Below, in pieces: positions 590-23,189 of a stretch of DNA of 64,000 nucleotides. The stretch comes from Candidatus Magasanikiibacteriota bacterium (GTDB lineage: Bacteria > Patescibacteriota > Patescibacteriia > Magasanikbacterales > GWA2-37-8). The stretch covers positions 48,571 through 112,570 of the forward strand of contig JAHFHZ010000001.1 in assembly GCA_023246715.1 (NCBI GenBank), written 5' to 3'. The notes under the pieces are model-generated. The model searched no databases. It worked only from the letters and a program-made list of their open reading frames with translations, and was not told where the DNA came from. The first letter of the stretch is position 1, and each line of letters begins with the position of its first letter. Both the position numbers and the translations under genes were made by a program.

Positions 590-1722
590 GTAAACAAAGA
601 ATTTTGATATTTTCCACCGCCTATCTTCCTTTTATTGGCGGAGCCGAAGTGGCCGTTAAAGAAATCACCGATCGATTAGGATCGGTGTTTGACTTTGAAA
701 TGGTCACTGCACGATTGGACTCAAAATTGCCTGTTACTCAACGACTCACTCATAATTTTGTGGTGCACCGTATTGGGGTTGGGAACCGGTTGGATAAATT
801 ACGACTCTATTTTGAGGGTGTCAAACAGGCGCGAACGTTGGGGAAGTTTAACGTGGTGTGGGCGGTTATGGCCAGTTACGCTGGCTTCGCGGCGTTACGC
901 TATAAAAAGCAAAATCCGGCAGCGCGGTTTTTGCTCACCCTGCAAGAGGGGGACAGCAAGTGGCATATTTATAAGCGTGTCTGGTGGTGCTGGTGGTACT
1001 TTAAACAAATTTTTAAGCGGGCGGATCATATTCAAGCGATTAGCACCTATTTGGCCGCGTGGGCCAAACAGCTCGGCGCTACGTGCCCGATTACCGTGGT
1101 GCCAAACGGGGTGGATGTGAAGAGCTTTATTTTATCCGTCGAAGATAAACGCGTGCGTTACCGCGAATCACTCCGCGATGAATTGTGTTTACCAAAGAAT
1201 GCCCCGGTAATTTTTTCAGCTTCACGGCTGGTACCGAAAAATGGCATTGGAGATTTAATTGGTAGCCTACTTTTTTTACCCGCGACTGTTCATTTGGTAT
1301 TAGCTGGTGATGGAGCCCTGCGTGGTAGCCTAGGGGTTTTAGCGCGGCAAAGCAACGTTGCTGCTCGGGTTCATTTTTTGGGCCATCAGGACCCCGATAA
1401 CTTGCCTGCTTTGTTGTGGGGCAGTGATGTGTTTTGCCGACCAAGTTTATCCGAAGGTTTGGGAAATTCATTTTTAGAAGCCTTGGCCGCCGGGGTGCCA
1501 GTGGTGGCCACACCAGTTGGGGGTATTCCGGATTTTTTGCAAGATGGGCAAACCGGACTATTTTGCGCGGTGAACAACCCCAAAGATATCGCCGAAAAAA
1601 TAAAAATTATTTTGAGCGGCGACGCTCTGCGGGGACTCTTATTTGAAAATGGTAAAAAATTAATCAGTCAGAAATATTCCTGGGAGACGGTGGCTGCCCA
1701 GATGAAACAGATATTAGTATGA
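586..1722 (+). CDS. Glycosyltransferase, GT4-like (GT-B fold)
   Basis: C-terminal [28 protein letters not shown] motif (EX7E-type). Start overlaps the upstream stop (ATGA). Confidence 0.75.
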
Positions 1723-2816: not shown

Positions 2817-3802
2817 TGATTAGCCTGGACAAAAAAATACTTGATCCGAATTCAACAGTTGCTCAACGGATGATTCAGCAGGGCTTACAGGATTCATTAT
2901 TTATTGTGGTACCTGCTGTTTCAACTCAGCAGGTTCGTTTATCAACAACCGTACAAGTTTTAGGAGTAGGGGGTAGTAAATTTTTTCAGTTTTTTGGTAT
3001 TATTAGTTCAGGACGTAAATTTCTTTTTGAACACCCCGAGATTACTGTCGTTACCTGCCAAGATCCATTTTTTACGGCCTTGGCAGCATTTTTTATTTGG
3101 AAACAGCCATTGGTTTTCGAAGTGCAAGTGCACGGGGATTTTTTTGGATCAAACTATTATCGTGCAGGCAGCTTGATGAATCGCGCGCGCTATTATTTGG
3201 GTAAATTTTTCATCCGATTGGCTAATCCTGTCCGTGTGGCGGGGGAACGGATTAAACAGAGTATTATTGCCACAGGAGTCGCTGAACACCGAATCGTGGC
3301 GCGCCCAGTTACCTTAGACCCCGAAGCCACGCCACACTTTAAACCACATTTTAATTTGCACGAGCGTTTTCCTGGTTATGAAAAAATTTTTGTTGCTTTA
3401 GGTCGGCTTGATCCGGTCAAGAATATTGCCTGGCTCATTCAACTCTTTCCTGAATTGCTTAAAACGCATCGTGGCACGCTTTTAGTGATTGTTGGTGATG
3501 GGGTGGAGCGTGCGGCTTTGGAATTGCTCGTCAAGCATTTTTGTCTGCGTGATAATATTGTTTTTACTGGGTGGGTTAACGACCCACTTAGTTACCTGGC
3601 GAGTAGTGATGGTCTTTTATTCCCGAGCCTTTCGGAGGGGTATGGCCTTGCCTTACTTGAGGCAAATGCGGTAGGATGTCCTATAGTTACGACAGATGTG
3701 GGTGTGGCTAATTTTGAACTTAACACCGGACCCGCCGTGCATATTGTCCCGATTAACGACCGGGCAGCATTCCTTAAGGCGGTATTTACTTTGTATAATT
3801 AA
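2804..3802 (+). CDS. Glycosyltransferase, GT4-like
   Basis: SEGYGLALLEANAVGCPIVTTDVG motif. Confidence 0.65.
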   Translation: MPQLMISLDKKILDPNSTVAQRMIQQGLQDSLFIVVPAVSTQQVRLSTTVQVLGVGGSKFFQFFGIISSGRKFLFEHPEITVVTCQDPFFTALAAFFIWKQPLVFEVQVHGDFFGSNYYRAGSLMNRARYYLGKFFIRLANPVRVAGERIKQSIIATGVAEHRIVARPVTLDPEATPHFKPHFNLHERFPGYEKIFVALGRLDPVKNIAWLIQLFPELLKTHRGTLLVIVGDGVERAALELLVKHFCLRDNIVFTGWVNDPLSYLASSDGLLFPSLSEGYGLALLEANAVGCPIVTTDVGVANFELNTGPAVHIVPINDRAAFLKAVFTLYN

Positions 3803-6047: not shown

Positions 6048-7732
6048 AGTTTTTTTCACCTTTTCGTTTGAGTGTTGTTGGCTTGGTGATTTTTTTATTG
6101 ATTCCTCGCCTGATTCTGTTAACCAACGGCCTGGACAGCCAGCGAATTTGGGACACTAATACCCCGGCTGCTTTTCAGTTTTTAGCGGCTCTTAAAGACA
6201 ATCGCCTGGGTGAATTTTGGCGTTCGGGGCAGAAATATCCGCTGCTCGGTTCGTATTCGTTTGTTCCAGTCCTTGGTGCTTATTATACCGTAGAGAAAGT
6301 TCGCGGTATTTTTGCGGCGCCGATTGATTTTATGAAGGCGTATGCGCTCGGAGAAACAAACGTGTTTTTTTGGATTCGGTTGCAAATGCTGGTTTTGAAC
6401 TTGGTGACAATCTTGCTTCTTTATCGTTTGACTAAACGGTTTACCGGAGCGTCGCGCCGGGCCGGACTATACGTCGTGCTTTTAGCAGCGGTTAATTTTT
6501 ACGTAGCCTTTTTTTCGGTGATGCCGCGCATACATAGTTTTGCTTTTTTTGCCGTGACTCTGACGCTCTACGCTTCGCTCCAATTACTTGAAAAGAAAAC
6601 TACTCGTAATTACTTACTGGCATTTGGCGCGGCGATTATCGCTGGGAGTGTTTCGCAGAGCGGTGTACCAGCCGTGCTTTTACCGATTGGAGCTCATTTT
6701 TATGATTCTGAGCAAAGCAAGTGGTTACTGCGAATTAATCGGCGTCTTGTTGCCAGCGGAATTGCCTATGCAGTGCTTACGGCTGTTTTGGGTTACCCGC
6801 GCACAGTGCTTTGGTTGGTGGATGCCACATTGCAGTTATTTTCAATGGTTATTTTGGGGGGTAATCATATTATTCCGTCGGTAACGTTCACTTGGGTACC
6901 GGTTTACTATTTACTCTCAACCGAATTTATCGCCGTGTGGCTGGGACTAGTGGCGATATTTTTTGCTATACGGCACTCTATTGTTCGGTCAGCCGAGCGT
7001 TTGCGCTTTGCCCCGGCAGATTGGTTGGCTTTGGGTCACGTGGTTGTTTTTTTTGGCGCATTTGGTTTTTCAAATATTTTTAGCGGCCGATTCATGCTGG
7101 CGGCAATGCCCTCGATGTTGTTTTTGGCAGCGCGCCTCATGATGCAGCTGGAACGTTGGCGCTGCGCGTGGTACCCGCTGGTTGTTTGTTTAGCCTTTCA
7201 GGGTTATGGAATTATTCAACTAAGCTCGGCGGCAGCAGGAGGGGACACGCGCGCGGACGCGGCGAGCTGGATATTAAACAACACTAAACCCACTGATCGA
7301 TTGGCCACCACGCTTGACCCGGTATTTTTGGGGATTGTGCCAACTCCCGAAGCTGTGGGCGGGTACGCAGCGCCAATTTTGGGAGCCAATGAAAGTTTGG
7401 TAAAACAACATAATCTGATCGGGGATAAATCGCGTTTTTTGAGTTGGTTTAACGCTTCTTCTACTCCGGCAATAAAAGCCGACTTGCTTAGCTTTGACTA
7501 CTTGATAGTGTCGGTAACTGATCGGAATGTATTTGTAACCGAGGCAGAACTGCACAACGCTCGTTTTAAATTGGTGCAGAGCTTTTATAACACGCCAGAG
7601 CGGAATGCGTTTGAGCAGTCATTTATTCCCTGGGATTTTATTACGCCCCGACCAAGCATCCCGCACCCGCTCGCTTTGCAACGCTTCAAGGCGTTTGGCC
7701 CAACTGTAGAGATTTATCAACGGATGCCGTAA
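6041..7732 (+). CDS. Polytopic membrane glycosyltransferase, GT-C fold (ArnT/PMT, GT39/GT83-like), with a C-terminal soluble domain
   Basis: About 10 hydrophobic helices in the N-terminal 400 aa. Organisation matches ArnT/PMT-like mannosyl or arabinosyl transferases. Confidence 0.5.
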   Translation: MLKFFSPFRLSVVGLVIFLLIPRLILLTNGLDSQRIWDTNTPAAFQFLAALKDNRLGEFWRSGQKYPLLGSYSFVPVLGAYYTVEKVRGIFAAPIDFMKAYALGETNVFFWIRLQMLVLNLVTILLLYRLTKRFTGASRRAGLYVVLLAAVNFYVAFFSVMPRIHSFAFFAVTLTLYASLQLLEKKTTRNYLLAFGAAIIAGSVSQSGVPAVLLPIGAHFYDSEQSKWLLRINRRLVASGIAYAVLTAVLGYPRTVLWLVDATLQLFSMVILGGNHIIPSVTFTWVPVYYLLSTEFIAVWLGLVAIFFAIRHSIVRSAERLRFAPADWLALGHVVVFFGAFGFSNIFSGRFMLAAMPSMLFLAARLMMQLERWRCAWYPLVVCLAFQGYGIIQLSSAAAGGDTRADAASWILNNTKPTDRLATTLDPVFLGIVPTPEAVGGYAAPILGANESLVKQHNLIGDKSRFLSWFNASSTPAIKADLLSFDYLIVSVTDRNVFVTEAELHNARFKLVQSFYNTPERNAFEQSFIPWDFITPRPSIPHPLALQRFKAFGPTVEIYQRMP

Positions 7733-12108: not shown

Positions 12109-13977
12109 ATGTGCGGAATTAACGGCTTAACATTTGCAAATCCAGAGCTGATCGCGAAAATGAATCAGCTCACCGCTCACCGCGGTCCTGACCAGACCGC
12201 GGTTTTTACGTCTGAGGGTATTTCGTTAGGCCATAACCGCCTGGCCATTATTGATTTATCCCCGGCAGCCAACCAGCCGATTTGGGATTCCGAGCACCGA
12301 ACGGCCATTATTTTGAATGGTGAGATTTATAATTATCGGGAGTTACGGGCGCAGCTAGCAAAAAAGTATACGTTTGTTTCACAGAGTGATACGGAAGTCA
12401 TTTTATATGCCTACAAGGAGTATGGTCCGGAGTGCCTGACGAAATTGAACGGGATGTTTGCTTTGGCTATTTGGGATAATCAGACAAAAGAATTATTTTT
12501 GGCTCGCGACCCCATGGGCATTAAACCGCTGTGCTATTTTCAAGACCAGCGAGGCTTGTTTTTTTCTTCCGAGATTAAGGCGCTTCTGGCGGCTGGTGCC
12601 CCGCGAAAGGTGAATACTCAGGCTTTTAGCGCTTATTTTAATTTATTGTATATTCCCGAACCACAAACAATGTTTGAGGGGATATATAAGTTACCTGCCG
12701 GGCATTGGTTGCGGTTTAAGGGCGGACAGCGCACGATCCAGCGTTATTACGCGTTAAACAATTTTTTTGATTTTACTGATTACGTGCAGACGGTTAATCA
12801 GGTGAGGGGCCTATTTAAAGATAGCGTGCGGCGACAGTTGGTGTCTGATCGGCCGGTGGGCGTATTTTTGAGTGGTGGATTGGACTCCACAGCGGTGCTT
12901 GGCGCGGCTACCGAGTTTCATGGCCGAGGGATTAAAACTTTTTCGGTTAGTTTTAGCGACAATGTCGAGCCTGATAAATTTGCAGCCGATGCCCGGTTAG
13001 CTAAGCAGACGGCGGCGTATTATGGTAGTGATCATCAGGAATTAGTAATTGGAGCGGGTGATTTTAGCGAGCAGATCAATAATTTAGTATGGCATTTAGA
13101 TGAGCCAAATTTTAACCCAACTGCAGGAGCGATGTTTTTACTGTCCCGCCTGGCAAAACAACACGTGGCGGTGGTGTTGGGTGGGGACGGGGGAGATGAA
13201 TTATTTGGTGGGTACCCGCGGTATTATTATAGTCGATTGATTTCGGCATTTCAGCGGCTGCCAAGCGCGACCCAGCAGATTGGTCGTGGTCTGCTCTCTC
13301 TGGTCGGCAAAAAGGATTTTGCGGAGAAATTAGCTTTGCCCCCCGATGCGCGACGAGTATTGGCTTTTTTACTTCAAAAGCAACAAACGGTGCATAGTGT
13401 GATCCAGCCAAGTTACGCCGATGCTCGGGGCTTGGAGGTTGATTTTCAACAACGCTATTTTGGAGTATCATCCGCTGGCGTGAAGACAGATTTTGAAAAG
13501 CACTTTATGCATATTGATCGGCAAAGCTGGTTGGTAGACGAATCCCTCCTGCGCACTGATCGGATGACCATGGCGTTTGGATTAGAAGCGCGCGTGCCAA
13601 TTTTAGATTATCGTTTGGTGGAATTGGCCTTGCGCATCCCCACGGCGTGGAAGTTTAGTTTGTGGCAACGACCCAACAAATTCCAAGGTAAACACATTTG
13701 GCGCGACGCGGTGCGTGAATACTTGCCAGAACATGTTTTGAACCAACCAAAGCGAGGATGGTTTACCCCCATGGCCAAGTGGGTTCGCGCGGATTTGCGT
13801 TTACTGGTAGAGGACATATTGCTTTCGGATCGGTTACCAACGGAATTTTTTAATCGGGTTGGGGTAGCCCGGATGTGGCAAGATCATCTGAGTAAAAAAT
13901 ACTATAATTTGAACATGCTTTGGGCGATCGTGATGTGGCAGTTATGGTACGAACGGTTCATTAAAAGTTCAAGTTAA
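12109..13977 (+). CDS. asnB: Asparagine synthetase-like glutamine amidotransferase (AsnB family)
   Basis: MCGI N-terminal nucleophile Cys2, PP-loop SGGLDSTAV, length of 622 aa. Confidence 0.85.
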   Translation: MCGINGLTFANPELIAKMNQLTAHRGPDQTAVFTSEGISLGHNRLAIIDLSPAANQPIWDSEHRTAIILNGEIYNYRELRAQLAKKYTFVSQSDTEVILYAYKEYGPECLTKLNGMFALAIWDNQTKELFLARDPMGIKPLCYFQDQRGLFFSSEIKALLAAGAPRKVNTQAFSAYFNLLYIPEPQTMFEGIYKLPAGHWLRFKGGQRTIQRYYALNNFFDFTDYVQTVNQVRGLFKDSVRRQLVSDRPVGVFLSGGLDSTAVLGAATEFHGRGIKTFSVSFSDNVEPDKFAADARLAKQTAAYYGSDHQELVIGAGDFSEQINNLVWHLDEPNFNPTAGAMFLLSRLAKQHVAVVLGGDGGDELFGGYPRYYYSRLISAFQRLPSATQQIGRGLLSLVGKKDFAEKLALPPDARRVLAFLLQKQQTVHSVIQPSYADARGLEVDFQQRYFGVSSAGVKTDFEKHFMHIDRQSWLVDESLLRTDRMTMAFGLEARVPILDYRLVELALRIPTAWKFSLWQRPNKFQGKHIWRDAVREYLPEHVLNQPKRGWFTPMAKWVRADLRLLVEDILLSDRLPTEFFNRVGVARMWQDHLSKKYYNLNMLWAIVMWQLWYERFIKSSS

Positions 13978-13993
13978 TTTTTTAAGTTTACTT

Positions 13994-14725
13994 TTGATTT
14001 TTCATGTGCAGTGTTTTACGATTTTAAGAGAGACCTGGAGAGGAAAGGATATCTATCGAGTGCTGATGAATCAGGCCTGCGCTGATTTTACGATGAAAGG
14101 ATTGACTGTTGATGTTGGCAGTAGCACGCGGCTGGCCAGTTATCATCGATTTTTACAGAAAGACCCCGGTACGACGCTGGAGTGTTTAGATTTGGGTTTT
14201 GAAAGCACCGGAATTGGCGGCAAACGTATAGACTTAGAGCAGGATAAGCTGCCGTACGCCGATGGGGTGGTGGATAGCGTACTGATGTTTAATCTGTTGG
14301 AACATATTTATAACTACGATCAAGCGCTCCGTGAAGCAGCGCGAGTTTTAAAGCCGGGAGGGCAGTTGATTGGCGCGGTGCCGTTTTTAGTTAACTATCA
14401 CCCTGATCCCCATGACTATTGGCGTTTTACGGGCGAGACATTACAAAATATTTTTACGCAAGCGGGCTTTAAGGATATTCAAGTTATTTCCTTTGGTTGT
14501 GGGCCATTCACGGCAGGTTGGTCGCATGTTGAGCAGGTAGTACCGCGGATTTTGAAAATTATCTTTTTACCACTTGTTTTGTTATTTGACGCGGCAGTAT
14601 CGGCGCTTGTACCAAAGATGAATAAAGATCGGTTTAGCCTGGGTTTTTTATTTCATTGCCGAGCGCCTGCCGCGGGAGAAGCGCAGGCAAAATCCATACA
14701 GGTAGCTGGCGCCCAGGCCGCCTAA
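13994..14725 (+). CDS. Class I SAM-dependent methyltransferase. The start is uncertain; alternative ATGs lie at 14066 and 14093.
   Basis: Motif I LTVDVGSST. Methyltransf_11-like spacing. The 3' end overlaps a convergent gene by about 78 bp. Confidence 0.55.
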   Translation: MIFHVQCFTILRETWRGKDIYRVLMNQACADFTMKGLTVDVGSSTRLASYHRFLQKDPGTTLECLDLGFESTGIGGKRIDLEQDKLPYADGVVDSVLMFNLLEHIYNYDQALREAARVLKPGGQLIGAVPFLVNYHPDPHDYWRFTGETLQNIFTQAGFKDIQVISFGCGPFTAGWSHVEQVVPRILKIIFLPLVLLFDAAVSALVPKMNKDRFSLGFLFHCRAPAAGEAQAKSIQVAGAQAA

Positions 14726-15988
14726 GAAGAAAATAATTCCAAGAAGTGGTACGCGCATCCGTGAGTAGCTGACACAGAGCGTTATAACGGCGTTAGCGAG
14801 TATGATTGATCCAAGCGCCAGGGCCACATAGTATTTTTTTTCTTTGTAGAGCGCGACCAAGCCGCCGACAACCAACAAAAGCATTGTTGCCCACACCATG
14901 TTGTCTAGGTAGGTTGCGAAACGCCCTAGGAAGCTTTGTTTTGTTCCTTTACGAATCATGTCGAGGATAGTGTCGTAGCGGCTGTCAAACCAAATTTTGG
15001 GCGCACAGAGTAATTGACTTACAACGATATTTTTTTGACCAATATGAGCAGTTACTTCGGCTGCCTTTTTTTTAATATTGGGATATTCGTTGGCGTTAAA
15101 ACCAACCATTGCGCTGCCCACGCGACCTTTAGCATCAAATATCTGCGGGCCCTCTTCGAGGGATTTTTTTTCGGCTGGAGTACCAAAAATACTGATGACG
15201 TTATATTGATAGCTTGAGCTTAATGTTGGCGTGCCGAGCAAAGCGTAATTGCGGATCAACCAAGAGCTTATTAATAACATGAAACATGTTGCAAAAAGCA
15301 GGCACCCTTTCAGTTTTTTTGCTAACGGAACCTGTTGGTTGGAAATAAGCAGCAGTCCCAGCCCCGGAGTCCATAGCAAGCCGACCGGGCGAGCGAGGGT
15401 GGCAATTCCCAGGGCTACCCCCGCCACCGCTGAGCGCAACCAAAACCATTTGGCTGATTCCGTATTTGGTCGGCGTAAAAGCAGGTATAGGGATAGAAAC
15501 ATGAAAAAACCATAGAAGCTTTCACTCATGGTTTGAAGTGACAACATCCATTGGAGCGGTTCGATTAAGAACAAACCCGTGAAACAATAACCGATTTTTG
15601 GTCGCCCGTATTGATCAAATAGTTTAAACAGCATCCAGCCCGAGAGGAGGAGTAAAATTTGTTGAACAGCGATAATCAGCAGGCCGCTTTTATCAAAGAA
15701 TTCTAGCGCGGCCAGAAATAAAGGGTAGCTTGGGGGCCGTAGTACCTGGGGGAGGTAAGGGGCATTTGGCGAGAGTGAAAACCCATGCCCAGCAAGAACA
15801 TTCTGGCCAATCAGACGGTATTGTAAGGCATCTTGAATCGGTGAAATATCCAAGTGCTTAGTGGCTACAAAATATATGCTGGCGGCGTGCAGAATGGCCA
15901 AAAAACCAAAAAAAATTAGCCGAGGGTGGCGGCGTAAAAAACTGAATTTTTTTGAGGTGCCGCGTTCGATTGCGGCAGACGTTTCCAT
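14648..15988 (-). CDS. Polytopic GT-C membrane glycosyltransferase (ArnT/PMT-like)
   Basis: More than 10 predicted helices. Adjacent to a DPM1-like GT2. Confidence 0.6.
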   Translation of the reverse strand: METSAAIERGTSKKFSFLRRHPRLIFFGFLAILHAASIYFVATKHLDISPIQDALQYRLIGQNVLAGHGFSLSPNAPYLPQVLRPPSYPLFLAALEFFDKSGLLIIAVQQILLLLSGWMLFKLFDQYGRPKIGYCFTGLFLIEPLQWMLSLQTMSESFYGFFMFLSLYLLLRRPNTESAKWFWLRSAVAGVALGIATLARPVGLLWTPGLGLLLISNQQVPLAKKLKGCLLFATCFMLLISSWLIRNYALLGTPTLSSSYQYNVISIFGTPAEKKSLEEGPQIFDAKGRVGSAMVGFNANEYPNIKKKAAEVTAHIGQKNIVVSQLLCAPKIWFDSRYDTILDMIRKGTKQSFLGRFATYLDNMVWATMLLLVVGGLVALYKEKKYYVALALGSIILANAVITLCVSYSRMRVPLLGIIFFLGGLGASYLYGFCLRFSRGRRSAMK

Positions 15989-16005
15989 ATCTTAATTAAG
16001 GTATT

Positions 16006-16713
16006 TTAGAGTTCGCTTTTTTTGGTGAATAAAATACGCAGCGCAAAAGGCGCGTAGCGGAAGCGTTTCCAGGTATTCATCTTGGATACCCCTTCGGTTC
16101 GTTTACGCCAAATTGAAGGAATTTCGATTGCTTTGTACCCAAGCCTCAGCGGCTTAAGCGTGGTTTCCATAGCTATCTCATGCAATTCTCCCCACCAGTG
16201 TACTTCTTTGAGCAATCGGGCGTTGAATATTTTAAACCCGTAGGTCAGGTCGTGTAGTTTGGTGAAATACAAAATGCGAAACACAATTTGGAAACCCCGA
16301 TTCAAGACATAGGTAAGCGGATCGTATTTATACACAGCACCTCCTTTGATCCAACGGCTGGCCACGGCCAGATCGTAGCCCTGTTCGGCAGCTTTAATCA
16401 TTTTTGGTACAGTTGCCAGATCCATTTCACCATCGGCATCGAGCATGAGCACATGACTGCCAGTGACTAGTGTAAACGCTTGGCGATAAGCGCGGCCAAG
16501 TCCAGGGTTTTCTTTTTGCGTGTAGTGACGCAGGAAGGGGTAGATTTTTTCCAGTTCCTGACAAATTTCAAAAGTACGCTGGCTGGAGCGCGGCGACACA
16601 ATGATGATTATTTGGTGCAAAGCGCTGCTGTTCCCCGCTACCAGAGCGTGGACTGTTTTACGCAGCACCTCTTCTTCAGACCACACCGGAATTATTACCG
16701 AGAGTTTGATCAT
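16006..16713 (-). CDS. GT2 polyprenyl-phosphate glycosyltransferase (DPM1-like)
   Basis: MIKLSVIIPVWSEEE, LMLDADGE (DxD). The start was moved to the internal ATG to avoid a long overlap with fcl. Confidence 0.7.
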   Translation of the reverse strand: MIKLSVIIPVWSEEEVLRKTVHALVAGNSSALHQIIIIVSPRSSQRTFEICQELEKIYPFLRHYTQKENPGLGRAYRQAFTLVTGSHVLMLDADGEMDLATVPKMIKAAEQGYDLAVASRWIKGGAVYKYDPLTYVLNRGFQIVFRILYFTKLHDLTYGFKIFNARLLKEVHWWGELHEIAMETTLKPLRLGYKAIEIPSIWRKRTEGVSKMNTWKRFRYAPFALRILFTKKSEL

Positions 16714-17680
16714 ATAACACTTTTTTCTTACGATCAGCTTCAATTTTATGGGCGAGGTACCAGGTAACGGTTTTTTGCAGGCCGTCACGCAGTGTTTGTC
16801 GTGGTTCCCAGCCGAGTTTTGTTTTCATTTTCGTGACGTCAAGAATTTTTTTGAGCTGGCCATCTGGTTTGCTGGTGTTCCAGGTTATCTCTCCTTGGTA
16901 AACAACTACCTCGCGAATCATTTCGGCTAACTCCCGAACGCTACAACCATTAGTGGTGGTTAAGTTCATTGGTGCGCCATCATCGTATTTTTCGGTGGCG
17001 AGCACGATCCCGTTGGCCGCATCTTCAACATACAAAAAATTGCGAGTTGGCGCTCCGGTTCCCCACACTTCCACAAATGGCATTTTGTCCATTTTAGCTT
17101 CCACAAAACGCCTGATTAGCGCACCTACGACGTGCGAACTGCCAAAATCAAAATTATCGCCCGGGCCATACATGTTGGTGGGAATTAAAAAAATAGAGTG
17201 AAATCCGTATTGTTTTTTGTAAGCCCACGATTGAACAGATAAAATACGCTTCACGATGCCGTAATCAAGAGCGGTTTCATGGGGTGGTCCTGTCCAGAGA
17301 TCTTCTTCGACTAAAATATCTTTATTCAGATATCCGGGGTAGGCGCAATCTGATCCGATGATGACAAATTTTGCTACTTTGTTAACACGCGCCGCTTCAA
17401 TTAAATTCGTACTCATCATTAGATTTTCGTAGTAGATATTTCCTGGAAATTTTTCGTGGATAGCCATTCCGCCATAAAAGGCGGCACAATGGATAATAAT
17501 GTCAAATTTTTGTTCAGCCAGGTATTTTTCGGTGGCTGCTTGACGGGTAAAATCAACTTCGCTACGGTGCGGTGTTACTATGGCGCCGGAGCGTGGCAGC
17601 AGCCGCTCTCGAATTTGGCTCCCCAGGAATCCGTTGCCACCAGTAATTAATATTTTTTTGTTTTGGAAAAAATTGGTCAT
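16676..17680 (-). CDS. fcl: GDP-L-fucose synthase (GDP-4-keto-6-deoxymannose 3,5-epimerase/4-reductase), or the ColC homologue
   Basis: KKILITGGNGFLGS; SHVVGALIRRFVEAK...VEVWGTGAPTRNFLYVEDAA matches the Fcl/GMER signature region. Confidence 0.8.
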   Translation of the reverse strand: MTNFFQNKKILITGGNGFLGSQIRERLLPRSGAIVTPHRSEVDFTRQAATEKYLAEQKFDIIIHCAAFYGGMAIHEKFPGNIYYENLMMSTNLIEAARVNKVAKFVIIGSDCAYPGYLNKDILVEEDLWTGPPHETALDYGIVKRILSVQSWAYKKQYGFHSIFLIPTNMYGPGDNFDFGSSHVVGALIRRFVEAKMDKMPFVEVWGTGAPTRNFLYVEDAANGIVLATEKYDDGAPMNLTTTNGCSVRELAEMIREVVVYQGEITWNTSKPDGQLKKILDVTKMKTKLGWEPRQTLRDGLQKTVTWYLAHKIEADRKKKVLYDQTLGNNSGVV

Positions 17681-17779
17681 AGCCTGGCTGCTTCTGAAAT
17701 CATCCTCGAATAGAACTCATTTGGTGTTTTTACAAAATCCTTTTTGTAATTAGCCAATATAATGTGACCCTATATTACC

Positions 17780-17861
17780 TGTCATTCCCGCGAAAGCGGG
17801 AATCCAGACACTCACGTTTTTGTCTTACCATGATTGGATTCCCGCTTTCGTGGGAATGACA
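17780..17861. repeat. Nested palindromic element. Arms are tgtcattcccgcgaaagcgggaatcc (17780-17805) and ggattcccgctttcgtgggaatgaca (17836-17861). Each arm is itself a GAAA-loop hairpin.
   Basis: Read directly from the sequence. The arms are reverse complements with 1 mismatch. The ATTCCC-N8-GGGAAT core is present. It lies in the 324-bp divergent intergenic region between fcl (-) and a GT4 gene (+). Confidence 0.8.
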
Positions 17862-18004
17862 ATTGGGAAAACTCTAAATAAGTTAGAGTCTCTATACTCT
17901 ACCAGATTAGCCCGTGTCAGGCAACTGGCCTCGAGGCCCCGGAATAGCGCAAAAAAATGACAAACAAGACAAAAATTGCTAAGCTAAGAAGGTTAATTTA
18001 GACT

Positions 18005-19126
18005 ATGCCTTTTGACCCACCTACACTGATTTACCTGGCCACAATCCGTCTGCCGACAGAAAAGGCCCACGGTCTCCAAATCATGAAGACGTGCGAGGCT
18101 TTAGCGGGTCGCGGGGTGGAGCTGCGGTTGCTGGTACCAAAGAGAAAAAATATTTTATCCGGTAGCGCTTTTGATTTTTACCAGATAAAGCAAAATTTTA
18201 AACTTGATTTTGTACCTTGCGTTGACGCGATTAATTGGCTGATTGGCCGATTTGGTTTTTGGTTGACTAATTGGAGTTTTTATCGCCAGGCAAAAAAATT
18301 TTTTACTCCTAACGCGTTGTTTTATACGCGTGATTTGCTGTTAGCGATGGCTTTGACCAGGGATCATAAGCCTTTTATCTATGAGATTCACAGTTTGCCT
18401 GAAAAAGCGAGTAAACACCATATCCGAGTCTGGCAAAGCGCGAGCGGAATTGTGGTGATCAGTGACGGATTGAAAAACCAGTTGATCGCCTGGGGTGTAA
18501 GTGAGAGTAAAATAACCGTGGCACGCGATGCGGTCGAGGTTGAGAAGTTCCAAATCGCGGAATCTAAACACGACTGCCGTCAGAAATTGAATTTACCGCT
18601 TGATGGGCAGATCGTCGTGTATACTGGGCATTTATACGCGTGGAAGGGAGCCGGAATTTTGGCGCAAGCGGCCACGATTTTGCCCCAGGCAACCCAAGTG
18701 TATTTGGTTGGTGGTACGAATGAGGATGTAGCTCGGTTTAAAACTTTATATACGGCGCCTAATTTGCACATTGTTGGCTGGCAACCCCACGCCCAGATGC
18801 CTTTTTGGAATAAAGCAGCCGATGTTTTGGTTATTCCCACCAGCGGCAAAGAAAAGATTGGCGCCGTCTATACTTCACCCATGAAATTATTTGAATATTT
18901 GGTCTCGGGGAATCCGATTGTCGCTTCGGCTATTCCGGCGTTGCAAGAAATATTAAGTGAAGATCGAGCGATTTTTTTTGTCCCCGATAACGCTCCGGAC
19001 CTGGCTCGCGCTGTGCAACAGGCCCTTACAACACCGCCCCAGGCAAAAGCCGGGGATCTTAGTGAGTACTCGTGGGGACAACGAGCGATCATTATTGCTA
19101 ATTTTATTAACACACTCAACCTTTAA
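18005..19126 (+). CDS. Glycosyltransferase, GT4-like
   Basis: GT-B; ...SPMKLFEYLVSGNPIVASAIPALQEIL. Confidence 0.65.
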   Translation: MPFDPPTLIYLATIRLPTEKAHGLQIMKTCEALAGRGVELRLLVPKRKNILSGSAFDFYQIKQNFKLDFVPCVDAINWLIGRFGFWLTNWSFYRQAKKFFTPNALFYTRDLLLAMALTRDHKPFIYEIHSLPEKASKHHIRVWQSASGIVVISDGLKNQLIAWGVSESKITVARDAVEVEKFQIAESKHDCRQKLNLPLDGQIVVYTGHLYAWKGAGILAQAATILPQATQVYLVGGTNEDVARFKTLYTAPNLHIVGWQPHAQMPFWNKAADVLVIPTSGKEKIGAVYTSPMKLFEYLVSGNPIVASAIPALQEILSEDRAIFFVPDNAPDLARAVQQALTTPPQAKAGDLSEYSWGQRAIIIANFINTLNL

Positions 19127-19140
19127 CGATAGCATTTTCT

Positions 19141-21030
19141 ATGTGTGGTATCGCAGGCTTTGTAGGAGCGGGGGATAGGAGTGTGCTAGAAAAAATGACC
19201 ACCACTATTAAGCATCGAGGGCCTGATGACGTGGGCTTCTTATTGCGCGAGAATGTCGGTTTTGGGCACCGGCGCTTGAGCATTATTGATTTAAGCCCGA
19301 CCGGCCACCAGCCCATGGGCAGCGCTGATGGTCGAATACAAATGGTGTTCAACGGTGAAATCTATAATTTTTTGGAGTTAAAAAAAGATTTAATTGCCAA
19401 AGGGTATGCCTTTCGGGGCGGGAGCGATAGCGAAGTGATTATCGCTTTGTACCAGGAATACGGCACAGAATCATTCTGTAGGCTTAATGGCATGTTCGCG
19501 ATTGCTCTCTATGATTTTAAGGATCGTGAGTTAGTGTTGGTGCGAGATCGGTTGGGTAAAAAACCTTTGTATTATAGCCAGATTGGCGGTGTGTTTTTGT
19601 TTGGCTCGGAATTGAAGGTTTTGTTAGAGCACCCGGCATTTGTTAAAAAATTGAATTTAGCTGCCGTTAACACTTATTTTGCGTGCGATTATATTCCCAC
19701 ACCAGCTACTATTTTTGAAGGCGTTTTTAAATTAGAGCCCGGCACCTATTTAAGTCTGAAGAGTGGCCATATCCAGAAGTATAAATTTTGGGATATCAGC
19801 TTTGATGCTGACCCTGAAGCAGTCCGTTTATCTAAGGAAGGCAAGGTAAATGAAATTTTTTCGGCGCTGGATGCACGCCTGGAATCAGCGGTACATAAGC
19901 GTTTGATGGCGGATGTTCCCTTAGGCGTTTTTTTAAGTGGGGGTATTGATAGTTCGACCGTGGCTTATTACGCACAAAAAAATAGCGTCCAGAAAATAAA
20001 AACTTTTTGTATTGGTTTTAAGGACCAAAGTTATGATGAAAGCTCTTATGCGCGCCAAGTAGCCAAGTTTTTGGGAACCGAGCATCACGAAGCGATTCTT
20101 GAGCCTAAGGAATGTCTGGAGCTTATACCCCGGCTAGCTGATTTGAGCGACGAGCCAGTGGCAGATTATTCTTTTATTCCGACGTATTTATTATCGCGTT
20201 TCACTCGACAGCACGTTACTGTTGCGCTTGGCGGGGACGGAGGGGACGAGCTATTTTTTGGGTATGGAACCATTGTGGCCGAACGAATCGCCCAGGCTGT
20301 ACGTTTTTTCCCTGTGGCAACAGATATTGGTTTGATGCTATTGGGAATGCTGCCGGTTTCGCACGCTCGATTTAATACGCGTTTTAAACTGGAGCGATTT
20401 TTGGCTGGGCTTAATTCGCCAAAATTATATCGCCATCAGGCGTGGCTTGGCACGTTTGATGCCTCAGAGCGAAACAAATTATTTACCCGACAAGCGCAGC
20501 AACAATTGGCCAGCACAAATGGCTATACTCACCTGGATAATTATGGAATTACGACTAAAAATTTTCACCGGTTTAATGAATTGATTTACTTGTATTTACG
20601 GACGTATCTGATGGATCAGGTGTTGGTAAAAGTTGACCGCGCCAGCATGGCCAACTCTTTAGAAGTTCGAGCGCCATTTTTAGATTATGAATTCGTTGAC
20701 TTCGTTAATTCACTTTCGTATACTTATAAAATTAAAGGTTTACAGACTAAATGGCTGCTCCGCAAGTTAATGCATGGTAAATTACCCCCCGAAATAATTC
20801 GGCGTCCCAAAGCTGGTTTTGGCATTCCGTTGTCGGATTGGTTAAGTGCTGAATTAAAGCCGCTGATGCTGGAATTATTAGCCCCGGAGAATCTCCGCCC
20901 AACCGGTCTGTTTAATCCCGATTATACCCAGGGGATTATTGCCCAGCACCTGGAGCGGCGCAAAGATTGCCGTAAGGAATTGTGGAATTTAATAACCTTT
21001 CAATTGTGGGCCAAAAAATGGCTGATTTAG
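19141..21030 (+). CDS. asnB: Asparagine synthetase-like glutamine amidotransferase (second AsnB paralogue)
   Basis: MCGIAGFVG, SGGIDSSTV PP-loop, 629 aa. Confidence 0.85.
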   Translation: MCGIAGFVGAGDRSVLEKMTTTIKHRGPDDVGFLLRENVGFGHRRLSIIDLSPTGHQPMGSADGRIQMVFNGEIYNFLELKKDLIAKGYAFRGGSDSEVIIALYQEYGTESFCRLNGMFAIALYDFKDRELVLVRDRLGKKPLYYSQIGGVFLFGSELKVLLEHPAFVKKLNLAAVNTYFACDYIPTPATIFEGVFKLEPGTYLSLKSGHIQKYKFWDISFDADPEAVRLSKEGKVNEIFSALDARLESAVHKRLMADVPLGVFLSGGIDSSTVAYYAQKNSVQKIKTFCIGFKDQSYDESSYARQVAKFLGTEHHEAILEPKECLELIPRLADLSDEPVADYSFIPTYLLSRFTRQHVTVALGGDGGDELFFGYGTIVAERIAQAVRFFPVATDIGLMLLGMLPVSHARFNTRFKLERFLAGLNSPKLYRHQAWLGTFDASERNKLFTRQAQQQLASTNGYTHLDNYGITTKNFHRFNELIYLYLRTYLMDQVLVKVDRASMANSLEVRAPFLDYEFVDFVNSLSYTYKIKGLQTKWLLRKLMHGKLPPEIIRRPKAGFGIPLSDWLSAELKPLMLELLAPENLRPTGLFNPDYTQGIIAQHLERRKDCRKELWNLITFQLWAKKWLI

Positions 21031-21038
21031 TAGTTTGT

Positions 21039-21743
21039 ATGCCGGAAATCTCGATTATTATCCCAATTTATAACGAACAAGCAATTTTGCATAAAGAAGT
21101 TTTAAGCATCGTCAGCGAGCTTAAAAATTTTTTGCCGCAGATAAACTACGAAATTATTTTGGTTGAAAATGGCAGCGTAGACGCGACCCGTTCAATCGCC
21201 GAGGGGCTAACACGATCTTACCCAACAATTCGTTTGGTACATTTACCGGCAGCCAGCTATGGCCGCGCGCTTAAGCATGGAATTAATGAAAGCCGGGGAG
21301 TGTATACGGTGCTGTTTAATATTGATTTTTGGGATGTGCCCTTTATCGTAAAGGCGCTCGAGATAATGCGCTACGGAAAAATGGATATGGTGGTTGGTTC
21401 CAAGACAATGAAGGGGGCGGAAGATACTAGGCCGTTTTTGCGCCGTCTGATTACGCAATTGTTCAATAAATTACTACGGTTAATCTTTGGCTTTACCGGT
21501 ACGGACACGCATGGAATTAAACTTCTGCGTCAGGATAAAATTTTGCCGGTGGTGGCCGCCTGTCAGACGGAGCGCGAAATTTTTGATACCGAGTTCGTGT
21601 TGCGTTCGCAACGAATGGGTTTGCTTACGGCAGAAATCCCCGTCGTTTGCCAGGAAAAGAGAGCCACGGTGTATCACATTAGCAAACGGATACCTCGAAC
21701 AATTAAAGATTTAATCGTGTTATTTTTTTCATTGCGCCGTTGA
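21039..21743 (+). CDS. GT2 glycosyltransferase (DPM1-like)
   Basis: MPEISIIIPIYNEQ, LFNIDFWD. The start was taken at the first ATG after the asnB stop. Confidence 0.65.
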   Translation: MPEISIIIPIYNEQAILHKEVLSIVSELKNFLPQINYEIILVENGSVDATRSIAEGLTRSYPTIRLVHLPAASYGRALKHGINESRGVYTVLFNIDFWDVPFIVKALEIMRYGKMDMVVGSKTMKGAEDTRPFLRRLITQLFNKLLRLIFGFTGTDTHGIKLLRQDKILPVVAACQTEREIFDTEFVLRSQRMGLLTAEIPVVCQEKRATVYHISKRIPRTIKDLIVLFFSLRR

Positions 21744-21746
21744 TGT

Positions 21747-23189
21747 ATGCCTTTGCTGATTGCTTGGAGTAAACAATGGTGGCCGGCAGTGCTCGCTGGG
21801 ATTTTTTTTCTTGGCGCGGTTGCGTATGGTTTTCCCGACAGTCCTGCGCCATGGTTTGATCAAGGGATTAATTTGGGCATAGCCAAAACCTACGCCTTGG
21901 ATGGCGTGTATAGCTTGGGGCTTGGGGCTGGAAAGGTGGTTGAAAACAGGCCGCTGATGATCAGCACCAATTACCCCCTGCTCGCTTGGATTACTCTGGG
22001 GTTTAAGCTTTTTGGTGTTGGTTTAGCGCAAGCTCAACTAGTAATGCTTGCTTTTTTAGTAGTTTTTTTGTTTGTCAGTTTTTTATTGGCTCGTCGGCTA
22101 TTTGGCGGGCAATCGGCTTTTTTGGCCATAGGATTGACGGTTACTTTTCTACCTTTTTACGGGAACGGGTTAAGCGGGGGTTTAGGCGAAGTGCCAGGGT
22201 TGGCTTACCTATTTTTAGCTTTGTTATTTTTTGATCGCCGAGAATCCCCCGTGACTGCTCTGGCCGGGATTTTTTTTGGTCTGGCGATTACGACGAAAAT
22301 TTTTTATTTATTGCTGCTGCTGCCAGTGCTGCTGGTGGAAATTATTTTTGCTTGGCGTGAACGTGTGGTCCCCTGGAAGCGGTGGTTTTGGTTGTCGGTG
22401 GGGATAGTGCTGCCCTTGATTATTTGGGTTCGAACTTTGTTGCCCGGGGGCTTTAGTTCAACTGGCTTGCAAGAGGCTCTGGCGTATTACCGCAACCCGT
22501 ATCGCCTGGTAGAATCAACCTTCCTTAAAAATATTTTTTCCTTTGCTACCGAGAGCACTTTGGCGCACTTTGCCTTTTTAGGCGCGATTGTATACGGAGG
22601 TTTTTTTACGCAAAAAAGATGGCGAACCGTTCAGCGGGCTGAGTTGATTTTATTATTATTTGTTCCGTTGAATTTAATTTATTTCCTTAAAGGACCAGGC
22701 TGGTTCAGGTATTTATTCCCGGCGCATTTGGTTTTATTGGTTATGTCCCCGGGCATGCTCTCTGCGCTCATTGAGCGCTGGCGGCCTAAGCAAATTGCCG
22801 GTTGGTTGGTGATAGGAGTGCTGGGAATACTTATTGCCGCGCAGACAATTCATTTTTTTAGGCATCGTTCCGATAAACTTTATTATAATCCCGCCCCGCG
22901 CGCGCAGGCGGCCGAATTATCCGCGGAGATCCCGGCTACAGCTGATTTGTACCTCGTTGATCATCCCGAATTATGGTTTTTATTGCCGGGTACGGGCGCA
23001 CGACAGTTTATTCATATGAATCCCTACACGGCTTTTGGAGATGATTTCTTTACTTTAGGCAATTATCCGCGTTATGTTGTGGTTGATCGGCCCGAGCAGG
23101 CTTTTAAAGAGGCGGACTATGCCATTTTTTCTAGGCGCTATGCACCATATAAGAATTTTGGCTTATATACAGTTTTTTTATTGCGTTAG
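21747..23189 (+). CDS. Polytopic membrane protein, GT-C-like glycosyltransferase
   Basis: About 12 hydrophobic helices. Follows the GT2 gene. Confidence 0.5.
   Translation: MPLLIAWSKQWWPAVLAGIFFLGAVAYGFPDSPAPWFDQGINLGIAKTYALDGVYSLGLGAGKVVENRPLMISTNYPLLAWITLGFKLFGVGLAQAQLVMLAFLVVFLFVSFLLARRLFGGQSAFLAIGLTVTFLPFYGNGLSGGLGEVPGLAYLFLALLFFDRRESPVTALAGIFFGLAITTKIFYLLLLLPVLLVEIIFAWRERVVPWKRWFWLSVGIVLPLIIWVRTLLPGGFSSTGLQEALAYYRNPYRLVESTFLKNIFSFATESTLAHFAFLGAIVYGGFFTQKRWRTVQRAELILLLFVPLNLIYFLKGPGWFRYLFPAHLVLLVMSPGMLSALIERWRPKQIAGWLVIGVLGILIAAQTIHFFRHRSDKLYYNPAPRAQAAELSAEIPATADLYLVDHPELWFLLPGTGARQFIHMNPYTAFGDDFFTLGNYPRYVVVDRPEQAFKEADYAIFSRRYAPYKNFGLYTVFLLR

Follow-up and report, generated by a model that had tools for sequence, protein, structure and literature searches.

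Neisseria intergenic mosaic elements (NIMEs) are built from pairs of dRS3-type repeats in inverted orientation, with a short variable segment in between. The dRS3 repeat itself, 20 bp in length and of the form ATTCCC-N8-GGGAAT, belongs to a family that was defined in Neisseria (PMC11893778). The Neisseria Transformation Sequence (NTS), a motif of 28 nt that Chenal et al. (Nat Commun 2025; PMC11893778) describe as CGTCATTCCCGCGMAVGCGGGAATCYRG, contains dRS3, yet its flanks give it an orientation. A degenerate motif, the Ssn-related motif (SRM), was formulated in the same work as HGTCWYN(0-2)YYVSBRHN(0-5)WNVSBRGN(0-2)RNCYNB. NTS is bound and cut, solely as single-stranded DNA, by SsnA, a small single-domain GIY-YIG protein (cd10448), which reduces transformation of N. 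meningitidis by DNA carrying NTS (PMC11893778). Binding and cutting by the Ssn family has been reported for N. meningitidis, N. elongata, N. wadsworthii and Wolbachia, and ssn genes across phyla typically have the repeat on their flanks (PMC11893778). In addition, genes near dRS3 copies in Neisseria display higher sequence variability between isolates, and the repeats were proposed to serve as recombination substrates (PMC11893778). A different account was given by Bertels and Rainey (bioRxiv 10.1101/2021.07.10.451892), who regarded the ATTCCCGCGCAGGCGGGAATC doublets of N. meningitidis as REPINs tied to a Group 2 RAYT (REP-associated tyrosine transposase; NMAA_0235). PMC11893778 cites work on REP-associated IS200/IS605 transposases; the words REPIN, RAYT and doublet are absent from it, and the tail-to-tail doublet is not described there as a common unit. 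The same Neisseria repeat is left with two unreconciled published accounts, namely REPIN/RAYT and NTS/Ssn.

Here, we analysed a palindrome in a 64-kb stretch of DNA (positions 1-64000, hereafter the window), nearly all of which forms one glycosylation island that is encoded almost wholly on the plus strand. The modules of this island repeat asparagine synthase, GT2 and PMT_2 genes, copies of which are just 25-34% identical. Inspection of the surroundings confirmed the placement given in the first-pass annotation, between a minus-strand epimerase gene and a plus-strand GT4 gene in the window's one large divergent intergenic region (Table 1). The start codon of the fcl-like epimerase gene is located 99 nt from the left arm of the palindrome and that of the GT4 gene 143 nt from the right arm. 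Homologues of the GT4 protein with a named source mostly derive from Candidatus Magasanikbacteria (44-51% identity), and the nearest homologues of any kind reach 57-58%. In a second assembly (L001), the intergenic region including the doublet is identical. Open reading frames over the doublet yield short spurious translations alone, e.g. WIPAFAGMT and SFPRKRES. Rfam searches returned no family at gathering thresholds in the whole window and, at E<=10, chance-level matches alone in the region; the tRNA scan detected none, and no terminator-like site was called at the doublet.

Two further observations concern this part of the window. The methyltransferase and PMT_2 open reading frames are convergent and share an unusual 78-nt 3' overlap (14648-14725), which represents the other edge of the minus-strand block. 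Moreover, a Logan contig from SRR14366772 encodes an identical GT4 protein and begins 212 nt upstream of GT4, at window position ~17793 and hence within the left arm; this start looks like an assembly break at repeated or hairpin sequence. The contig stems from a different strain, as the length of the downstream AsnB differs (611 vs 629 aa).

Table 1. Positions of the doublet and its neighbours in the window, and of Ssn-like genes and their NTS pairs in other loci (window positions unless a locus is named).
Feature	Position	Strand	Remarks
Methyltransferase ORF	13994..14725	+	
PMT_2 ORF	14648..15988	-	
GDP-L-fucose-synthase-like epimerase (fcl)	16676..17680	-	Pfam; homologues named GDP-L-fucose synthase
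Whole doublet	17780..17861	.	82 bp; TGTCA...TGACA at its ends
Left arm, intact NTS/SRM copy	17780..17807	+	TGTCATTCCCGCGAAAGCGGGAATCCAG; 1 mismatch to NTS; SRM exact
Right arm, decayed NTS copy, inverted (tail-to-tail)	17834..17861	-	Reads TGTCATTCCCACGAAAGCGGGAATCCAA on the minus strand
Spacer between 28-nt motifs	17808..17833	.	26 nt; 28 nt between the 27-nt complementary arms
Complementary arms (repeat finder)	17780..17806 / 17835..17861		27 nt, 96% complementary, 1 mismatch, 28 nt apart
Doublet flanks			Left ...CTATATTACC; right ATTGGGAAAA...
GT4 glycosyltransferase	18005..19126	+	Pfam families; homologues
L042, Omnitrophota	6913..7626		Ssn-like gene inside tail-to-tail NTS pair
L072, Anaerolineales			Ssn-like gene
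L073, Gammaproteobacteria	828..1188		Ssn-like gene inside tail-to-tail NTS pair
L098, Candidatus Peribacteria	6617..6989		Ssn-like gene inside tail-to-tail NTS pair
L098, exact NTS	6617..6644	+	
L098, Ssn-like gene	6665..6931	-	Between the exact and the variant NTS
L098, variant NTS	6962..6989	-	
L147, viral/prophage	3004..3378		Ssn-like gene inside tail-to-tail NTS pair
L189, viral/prophage			Ssn-like gene

The palindrome is the strongest inverted repeat in the entire 64-kb window. The near-perfect inverted arms noticed at first pass are real, but comprise 27 rather than 26 nt, with a single mismatch according to the repeat finder. An occurrence count, which had been suggested for the core and the arm sequence and was carried out here within the 64-kb window, located both at the two arms alone: the ATTCCC-N8-GGGAAT core is present in each arm without mismatch, giving just two matches as compared to 0.16 expected from shuffled sequence, and the 27-mer with up to three mismatches is likewise restricted to these two sites (0.00 expected). 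The first-pass annotation had further described each arm as a hairpin. This holds for the left arm, which forms a perfect 8-bp stem closed by a GAAA loop (ATTCCCGC-GAAA-GCGGGAAT); it does not hold in full for the right arm, where one stem pair is broken (A.C on the minus strand, G.T on the plus strand) by a G-to-A change, resulting in a weaker hairpin. In the left arm, the palindrome is preceded by GTC at its 5' side and followed by C at its 3' side, and the same GTC flank and 3' C are seen in both arms.

Applying the published criterion for NTS, i.e. at most one mismatch to the 28-nt sequence (PMC11893778), the left arm qualifies as NTS, the only deviation being T for C at position 1. It also provides the one SRM site of the window, as compared to a mean of 0.11 sites in 100 dinucleotide shuffles, and it combines a hairpin palindrome with oriented, non-palindromic flanks, as is characteristic for NTS and SRM. 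The right arm differs from NTS at three positions and falls short of both the NTS threshold and the strict SRM pattern. Both arms conform to the definition of dRS3, though the host is not Neisseria. Therefore, the connection to Neisseria dRS3 that had been drawn at first pass is correct and can be sharpened, as the left arm corresponds to NTS/SRM, an oriented 28-nt motif that contains dRS3. We conclude that the palindrome is a copy of an already described hairpin repeat family, arranged as a tail-to-tail NTS/SRM doublet, rather than a new kind of regulator. Considering all data, it is probably best explained in full as a REPIN/NIME-like NTS doublet that belongs to the Ssn target family and reached this locus by a lineage-specific insertion.

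Comparison with the described systems reveals likenesses and differences alike. With NTS/SRM, the left arm shares the oriented 28-nt motif, the 8-bp stem and both flanking features, GTC on the 5' side and C behind the palindrome, and the doublet is likewise intergenic. Unlike in the published cases, however, the host is probably a CPR bacterium, a group that the text of PMC11893778 does not mention, there is one doublet and no ssn gene in 64 kb, and the right arm lies below the published thresholds. As in dRS3/NIME elements, both arms carry the ATTCCC-N8-GGGAAT core and enclose a short variable segment, but in contrast to Neisseria NIMEs we see a single unit instead of an array and no link to antigen genes or to the integration of filamentous prophages. 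The doublet also has the structure by which REPINs are recognized, that is a pair of REP copies in inverted orientation, separated by less than ~130 bp and folding together into a hairpin (here 28 nt and -33.5 kcal/mol), and resembles them in its inverted short palindromes, its short spacer and the missing target-site duplication. It departs from REPINs in that it is known here as one doublet in 64 kb and not as a population.

Structure prediction for both strands, another analysis suggested at first pass, returned a long hairpin on each of them, for RNA as well as for single-stranded DNA. Within a 98-nt region, the single-stranded DNA folds into one long hairpin with a free energy of -33.5 kcal/mol on the plus strand (z -10.5) and -31.0 kcal/mol on the minus strand; the corresponding values for RNA are -53.2 and -51.5 kcal/mol. 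When folded alone as single-stranded DNA, the left arm reaches -10.7 kcal/mol (z -5.8) and the right arm -5.2 kcal/mol (z -2.2). Thus, the long hairpin has about twice the stability of both small hairpins together (~-16 kcal/mol) and is predicted to be preferred, meaning that the single-stranded flanks that SsnA needs would be buried.

To place the element within its family, we scanned other genomes, with each species represented by one genome, for exact copies of the 25-mer GTCATTCCCGCGAAAGCGGGAATCC and obtained at least 120 genome stretches. The hosts among the matches listed include Alpha-, Beta- and Gammaproteobacteria (Pseudomonadota), lineages labelled Deltaproteobacteria, Chloroflexota, Acidobacteriota, Planctomycetota, Nitrospirota, Omnitrophota, Bacteroidota and a Rickettsia endosymbiont. 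Seven loci among the matches listed belong to CPR bacteria, namely to Paceibacteria, Parcubacteria, Saccharibacteria, Peribacteria (two loci), Falkowbacteria and Sungiibacteriota. The same 25-mer is present in 95 viral or prophage stretches of IMG/VR, 80 of which are listed (L128-L207). The wide phylogenetic spread reported for NTS/SRM is reproduced by these matches; it sets the repeat apart from classical REPIN populations, which are lineage-specific. The occurrence of a dRS3-like repeat at this locus had been called unexpected. In view of the breadth of the family this surprise is unwarranted, since the exact core is known from many phyla, CPR bacteria among them.

The 120 genome loci (855,538 bases) and 95 viral loci (816,783 bases) were fetched, making up 215 loci or ~1.7 Mb in total. 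A search of the genome loci for SRM identified 248 sites, and 78 pairs of neighbouring sites are at most 150 nt apart. The majority of these pairs (57) is arranged tail-to-tail, as compared to 15 direct and 6 head-to-head pairs. Spacers of the 57 tail-to-tail doublets have a median length of 28 nt with an interquartile range of 20-42 nt, to be compared with the 26 nt between the 28-mers in the window; overall, spacer lengths elsewhere extend from 5 to 96 nt. In the viral and prophage loci the orientation bias is weaker, with 23 tail-to-tail, 34 direct and 8 head-to-head pairs.

Alignment of 42 distinct 28-nt variants revealed that 96.4% of the cells in the stem are paired, and pairing drops to 22-52% once the register is slid. 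Double-sided changes in the stem number 43 as compared to 11.7 in shuffles, a value that was reached in none of 500 shuffles. Judged from this alignment, the stem is under selection, with compensatory changes in its pairs. The invariant GTC and 3' C in the same alignment do not count as independent evidence, as they are imposed by the SRM search pattern. The doublets can also be copied as units: in five within-locus pairs (L063, L071, L089, L095 and L210), arms and spacer together are 0.76-0.95 identical, whereas the flanks are at the background level of 0.55-0.65. REPINs, too, are copied as doublets amid unrelated flanks. By eye, the doublet spacers of L010 (Gallionella) and L040 (Sideroxydans), which represent two genera of the same family, look similar; if so, a doublet 'master' sequence may have been passed on vertically in this family. 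The spacer of the window doublet resembles neither the spacers of other doublets nor any other sequence in the 120 genome loci and L001. A 21-mer of this spacer had no match in JGI metagenome contigs either, a weak null result, as the host proteins have no JGI record.

We also compared the locus with related CPR glycan loci. In L122, L124, L125, L223 and L224 (~47 kb), NTS is absent even when up to five mismatches are allowed, indicating that the doublet is lineage-specific. In these relatives, GT4 directly follows another gene, which encodes a methyltransferase (L122, L126) or a PMT_2 protein (L223), and fcl follows a gmd-like gene on the same strand. The doublet of the window is therefore located where gene order breaks relative to the relatives. 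A comparison of window positions 12109-23189 with L223 and L224 shows that the gmd-like gene, fcl and GT2 point in one direction in the latter, whereas fcl and GT2 of the window reside on the minus strand in a leftward operon with PMT_2. The fcl and GT2 proteins are 71-75% conserved in L223 and L224 (71% in both for fcl), as compared to 38-53% for their neighbours, which could mean that they represent a transferred cassette. An empty-site allele, in which the left flank would be joined to the right with 0-10 nt in between, was searched in JGI metagenomes with no hit, in a collection that is probably devoid of the host.

Among the four options offered by the first-pass annotation, i.e. a regulatory operator, a bidirectional structured RNA, a MITE-like insertion or a recombination site, the MITE-like insertion comes closest. 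The locus carries a doublet of a dispersed repeat that is absent from related loci and copied as a unit elsewhere, but a target-site duplication is lacking, and no direct repeat is visible in the flanks (...TATTACC on the left, ATTGGGA... on the right). Like MITEs such as the Correia elements of Neisseria, the doublet is short, non-coding and intergenic and has terminal inverted repeats. It differs from them in that its termini are themselves hairpins and in that the candidate partner is a GIY-YIG nuclease instead of a DDE transposase. As a MITE in the strict sense the element was thus rejected. We also rejected a CRISPR array. An arm resembles type I-E CRISPR repeats, but there are just two copies, these are inverted, and spacer lengths elsewhere vary from 5 to 96 nt.

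Which enzyme could be the partner of the repeat? Unbiased clustering of the open reading frames in the genome loci retrieved a small GIY-YIG protein as the sole repeat-specific family. Using tblastn, Ssn-like genes coding for single-domain GIY-YIG proteins of 94-98 aa were found in 6 of the 215 fetched loci (Table 1), including one CPR locus (L098) and two viral/prophage contigs. Pfam analysis of three of the six proteins assigned PF01541 with E values of 1e-14 to 1e-17, next to one weak overlapping match to T5orf172. The family is large and highly conserved, as 4,029 of 4,041 candidate proteins match at E<=1e-10; named sources of the top matches include Absconditabacterales (CPR, P0131), Ignavibacteria, Omnitrophota and Francisella. 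With Peribacteria and Absconditabacterales, Ssn-like genes are known here from two CPR lineages. NTS/SRM hairpins are present on both sides of five of the six genes, and L189 has one nearby copy. Four of the genes are enclosed by a tail-to-tail NTS pair. Hence, an ssn gene flanked by NTS in several phyla, as described previously, is seen again in loci that were fetched independently of PMC11893778. The Ssn-like gene of the Peribacteria locus L098, which lies between an exact and a variant NTS, has an in-frame TGA at codon 55, where the closest homologue (P0121, 89% identical) has Trp. As the frame goes on with conserved motifs, this may reflect a pseudogene, a sequencing error or a recoding event. 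In the 64-kb window, no Ssn-like gene was detected by hmmsearch (E<=10) or tblastn (E<=1).

The REPIN/RAYT account makes a different prediction, namely that the doublet was spread by a RAYT and not by Ssn, as proposed for the Neisseria repeat. It can draw on the assignment of ATTCCCGCGCAGGCGGGAATC doublets by Bertels and Rainey (bioRxiv 10.1101/2021.07.10.451892) and on the REPIN geometry of the window doublet, which folds as a long hairpin. However, with E. coli RayT as the single query, a search that could miss distant RAYTs, no RayT-like match was obtained in the window and the 120 genome loci (phmmer and tblastn) or in the 95 viral loci (tblastn), whereas the 215 loci contain six Ssn-like genes next to the repeat. 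In the ~1.7 Mb around repeat copies, the associated gene is of the GIY-YIG Ssn type and never RayT-like; the absence of a RAYT near the copies examined is a further difference from REPINs. On the basis of these gene neighbourhoods, the sampled loci favour Ssn over RAYT as partner, and spread of the doublet by a RAYT appears quite improbable.

These observations point to a tentative idea about how the repeat spreads. A gene-less doublet could be a miniature, non-autonomous form of a selfish NTS-ssn-NTS unit that would be mobilized by a GIY-YIG single-stranded DNA nuclease instead of a transposase and would pass from one phylum to another, with CPR bacteria and phages among its carriers. That gene-less doublets have the same geometry as the NTS-ssn-NTS unit suggests that they are miniature derivatives, and transfer of such a unit between phyla would account for the presence of one and the same 25-mer throughout the bacterial domain. 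The enclosure of four of six ssn genes by tail-to-tail pairs, the copying of doublets as units and the lack of RAYT genes near the copies examined are all in line with this idea, which we nonetheless put forward as a possibility less probable than not.

Several other explanations have to be weighed against a lineage-specific insertion of an NTS doublet. Cis-regulation of the divergent fcl and GT4 genes by the doublet, acting locally as operator, promoter donor or 5'-UTR hairpin, would fit the placement in the window's one large divergent intergenic region. The RNA hairpin would be very stable (-53 kcal/mol), and the outer end of the left arm contributes ATGACA and TATATT at a distance of 18 nt, directed toward fcl (17756-17785, minus strand). 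However, one promoter-like site was found as compared to 1.7 expected in shuffles, Rfam has no match, the orthologous fcl and GT4 genes of relatives have no such doublet upstream, and hundreds of unrelated contexts in many phyla harbour the same sequence. Local regulation is thus an unlikely explanation, and a regulatory role would be secondary to the identity of the repeat and not replace it. That the element marks an inversion of the minus-strand block 14648-17680 as a recombination scar or site, as also envisaged at first pass, appears more doubtful still. The doublet does sit at a gene-order break, fcl and GT2 being reversed relative to their co-directional arrangement with the gmd-like gene in L223 and L224, and Neisseria dRS3 copies, near which genes are more variable, have been proposed as recombination substrates (PMC11893778). 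Yet, the synteny comparison with relatives that had been recommended, made here with L223 and L224, bears out a different orientation of fcl and GT2 and at the same time argues against a simple inversion, as the PMT_2 orthologue is oriented alike in both genomes. Moreover, neither a second NTS copy nor a long inverted repeat exists near the 14.6-kb boundary, the paralogues are old (25-34% identity), and the relatives, with 38-75% protein identity, are too distant for dating. The inversion-marker idea is therefore unsupported. An inverted segmental duplication centred on the doublet was rejected as well, given paralogues of 25-34% identity and no self-match at the DNA level.

A chance palindrome or an intrinsic terminator has practically no likelihood. 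The hairpin shape alone speaks for it, whereas 0.00 matches are expected by chance and identical 25-mers exist in more than 200 loci elsewhere. There is no T-run on either side of the hairpin, no terminator was called, and both flanking genes point away from the element, for which reasons an intrinsic terminator was rejected. The first-pass annotation had held that an element unique in the genome and absent from orthologous regions would rather be a fortuitous palindrome or a simple terminator; both properties apply in the data available, yet the doublet is clearly not a product of chance, so that this reasoning is invalid. More serious is the possibility that the doublet is an inert relic of horizontal transfer or of an old insertion, which decays without function in a genome that has no cognate nuclease. 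One doublet per 64 kb, a unique spacer, a right arm with three mismatches of which one breaks the stem, and the absence of Ssn-like and RayT-like genes from the window are consistent with such a fate. On the other hand, the left arm reproduces the cross-phylum 25-mer core perfectly, which argues for recent arrival or constraint, Ssn-like genes do exist in CPR bacteria, and the window covers 64 kb while ~1 Mb of genome lies outside. We regard a relic as a minority reading that nevertheless deserves consideration.

Under the preferred explanation of a lineage-specific NTS doublet, the element most likely came into a Magasanikbacteria-like CPR lineage as a non-coding, non-autonomous insertion in the divergent intergenic region. 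Any action would depend on single-stranded DNA, as it arises during transformation, replication or repair. In single-stranded form, the left arm would adopt its hairpin, and an Ssn enzyme could read the GTC in front of the palindrome and the C behind it. If such an enzyme acts like SsnA, it would cleave a few nt 5' of the motif, just outside the outer ends of the doublet and on opposite strands. Given its decayed right arm, its occurrence as one doublet in 64 kb and the absence of an Ssn gene from the window, this particular copy may be an inactive relic.

Taken together, our data remove a candidate novel regulator at this locus, and any effect of the doublet on the adjoining glycan genes is probably incidental. 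The NTS/SRM repeat is present in several CPR lineages and in viral/prophage contigs, and its common form is a tail-to-tail doublet with a spacer of ~28 nt. If gene-less doublets indeed turn out to be miniature forms of a mobile NTS-ssn-NTS unit, the 'REPIN' population of Neisseria would need re-attribution from RAYT to Ssn.
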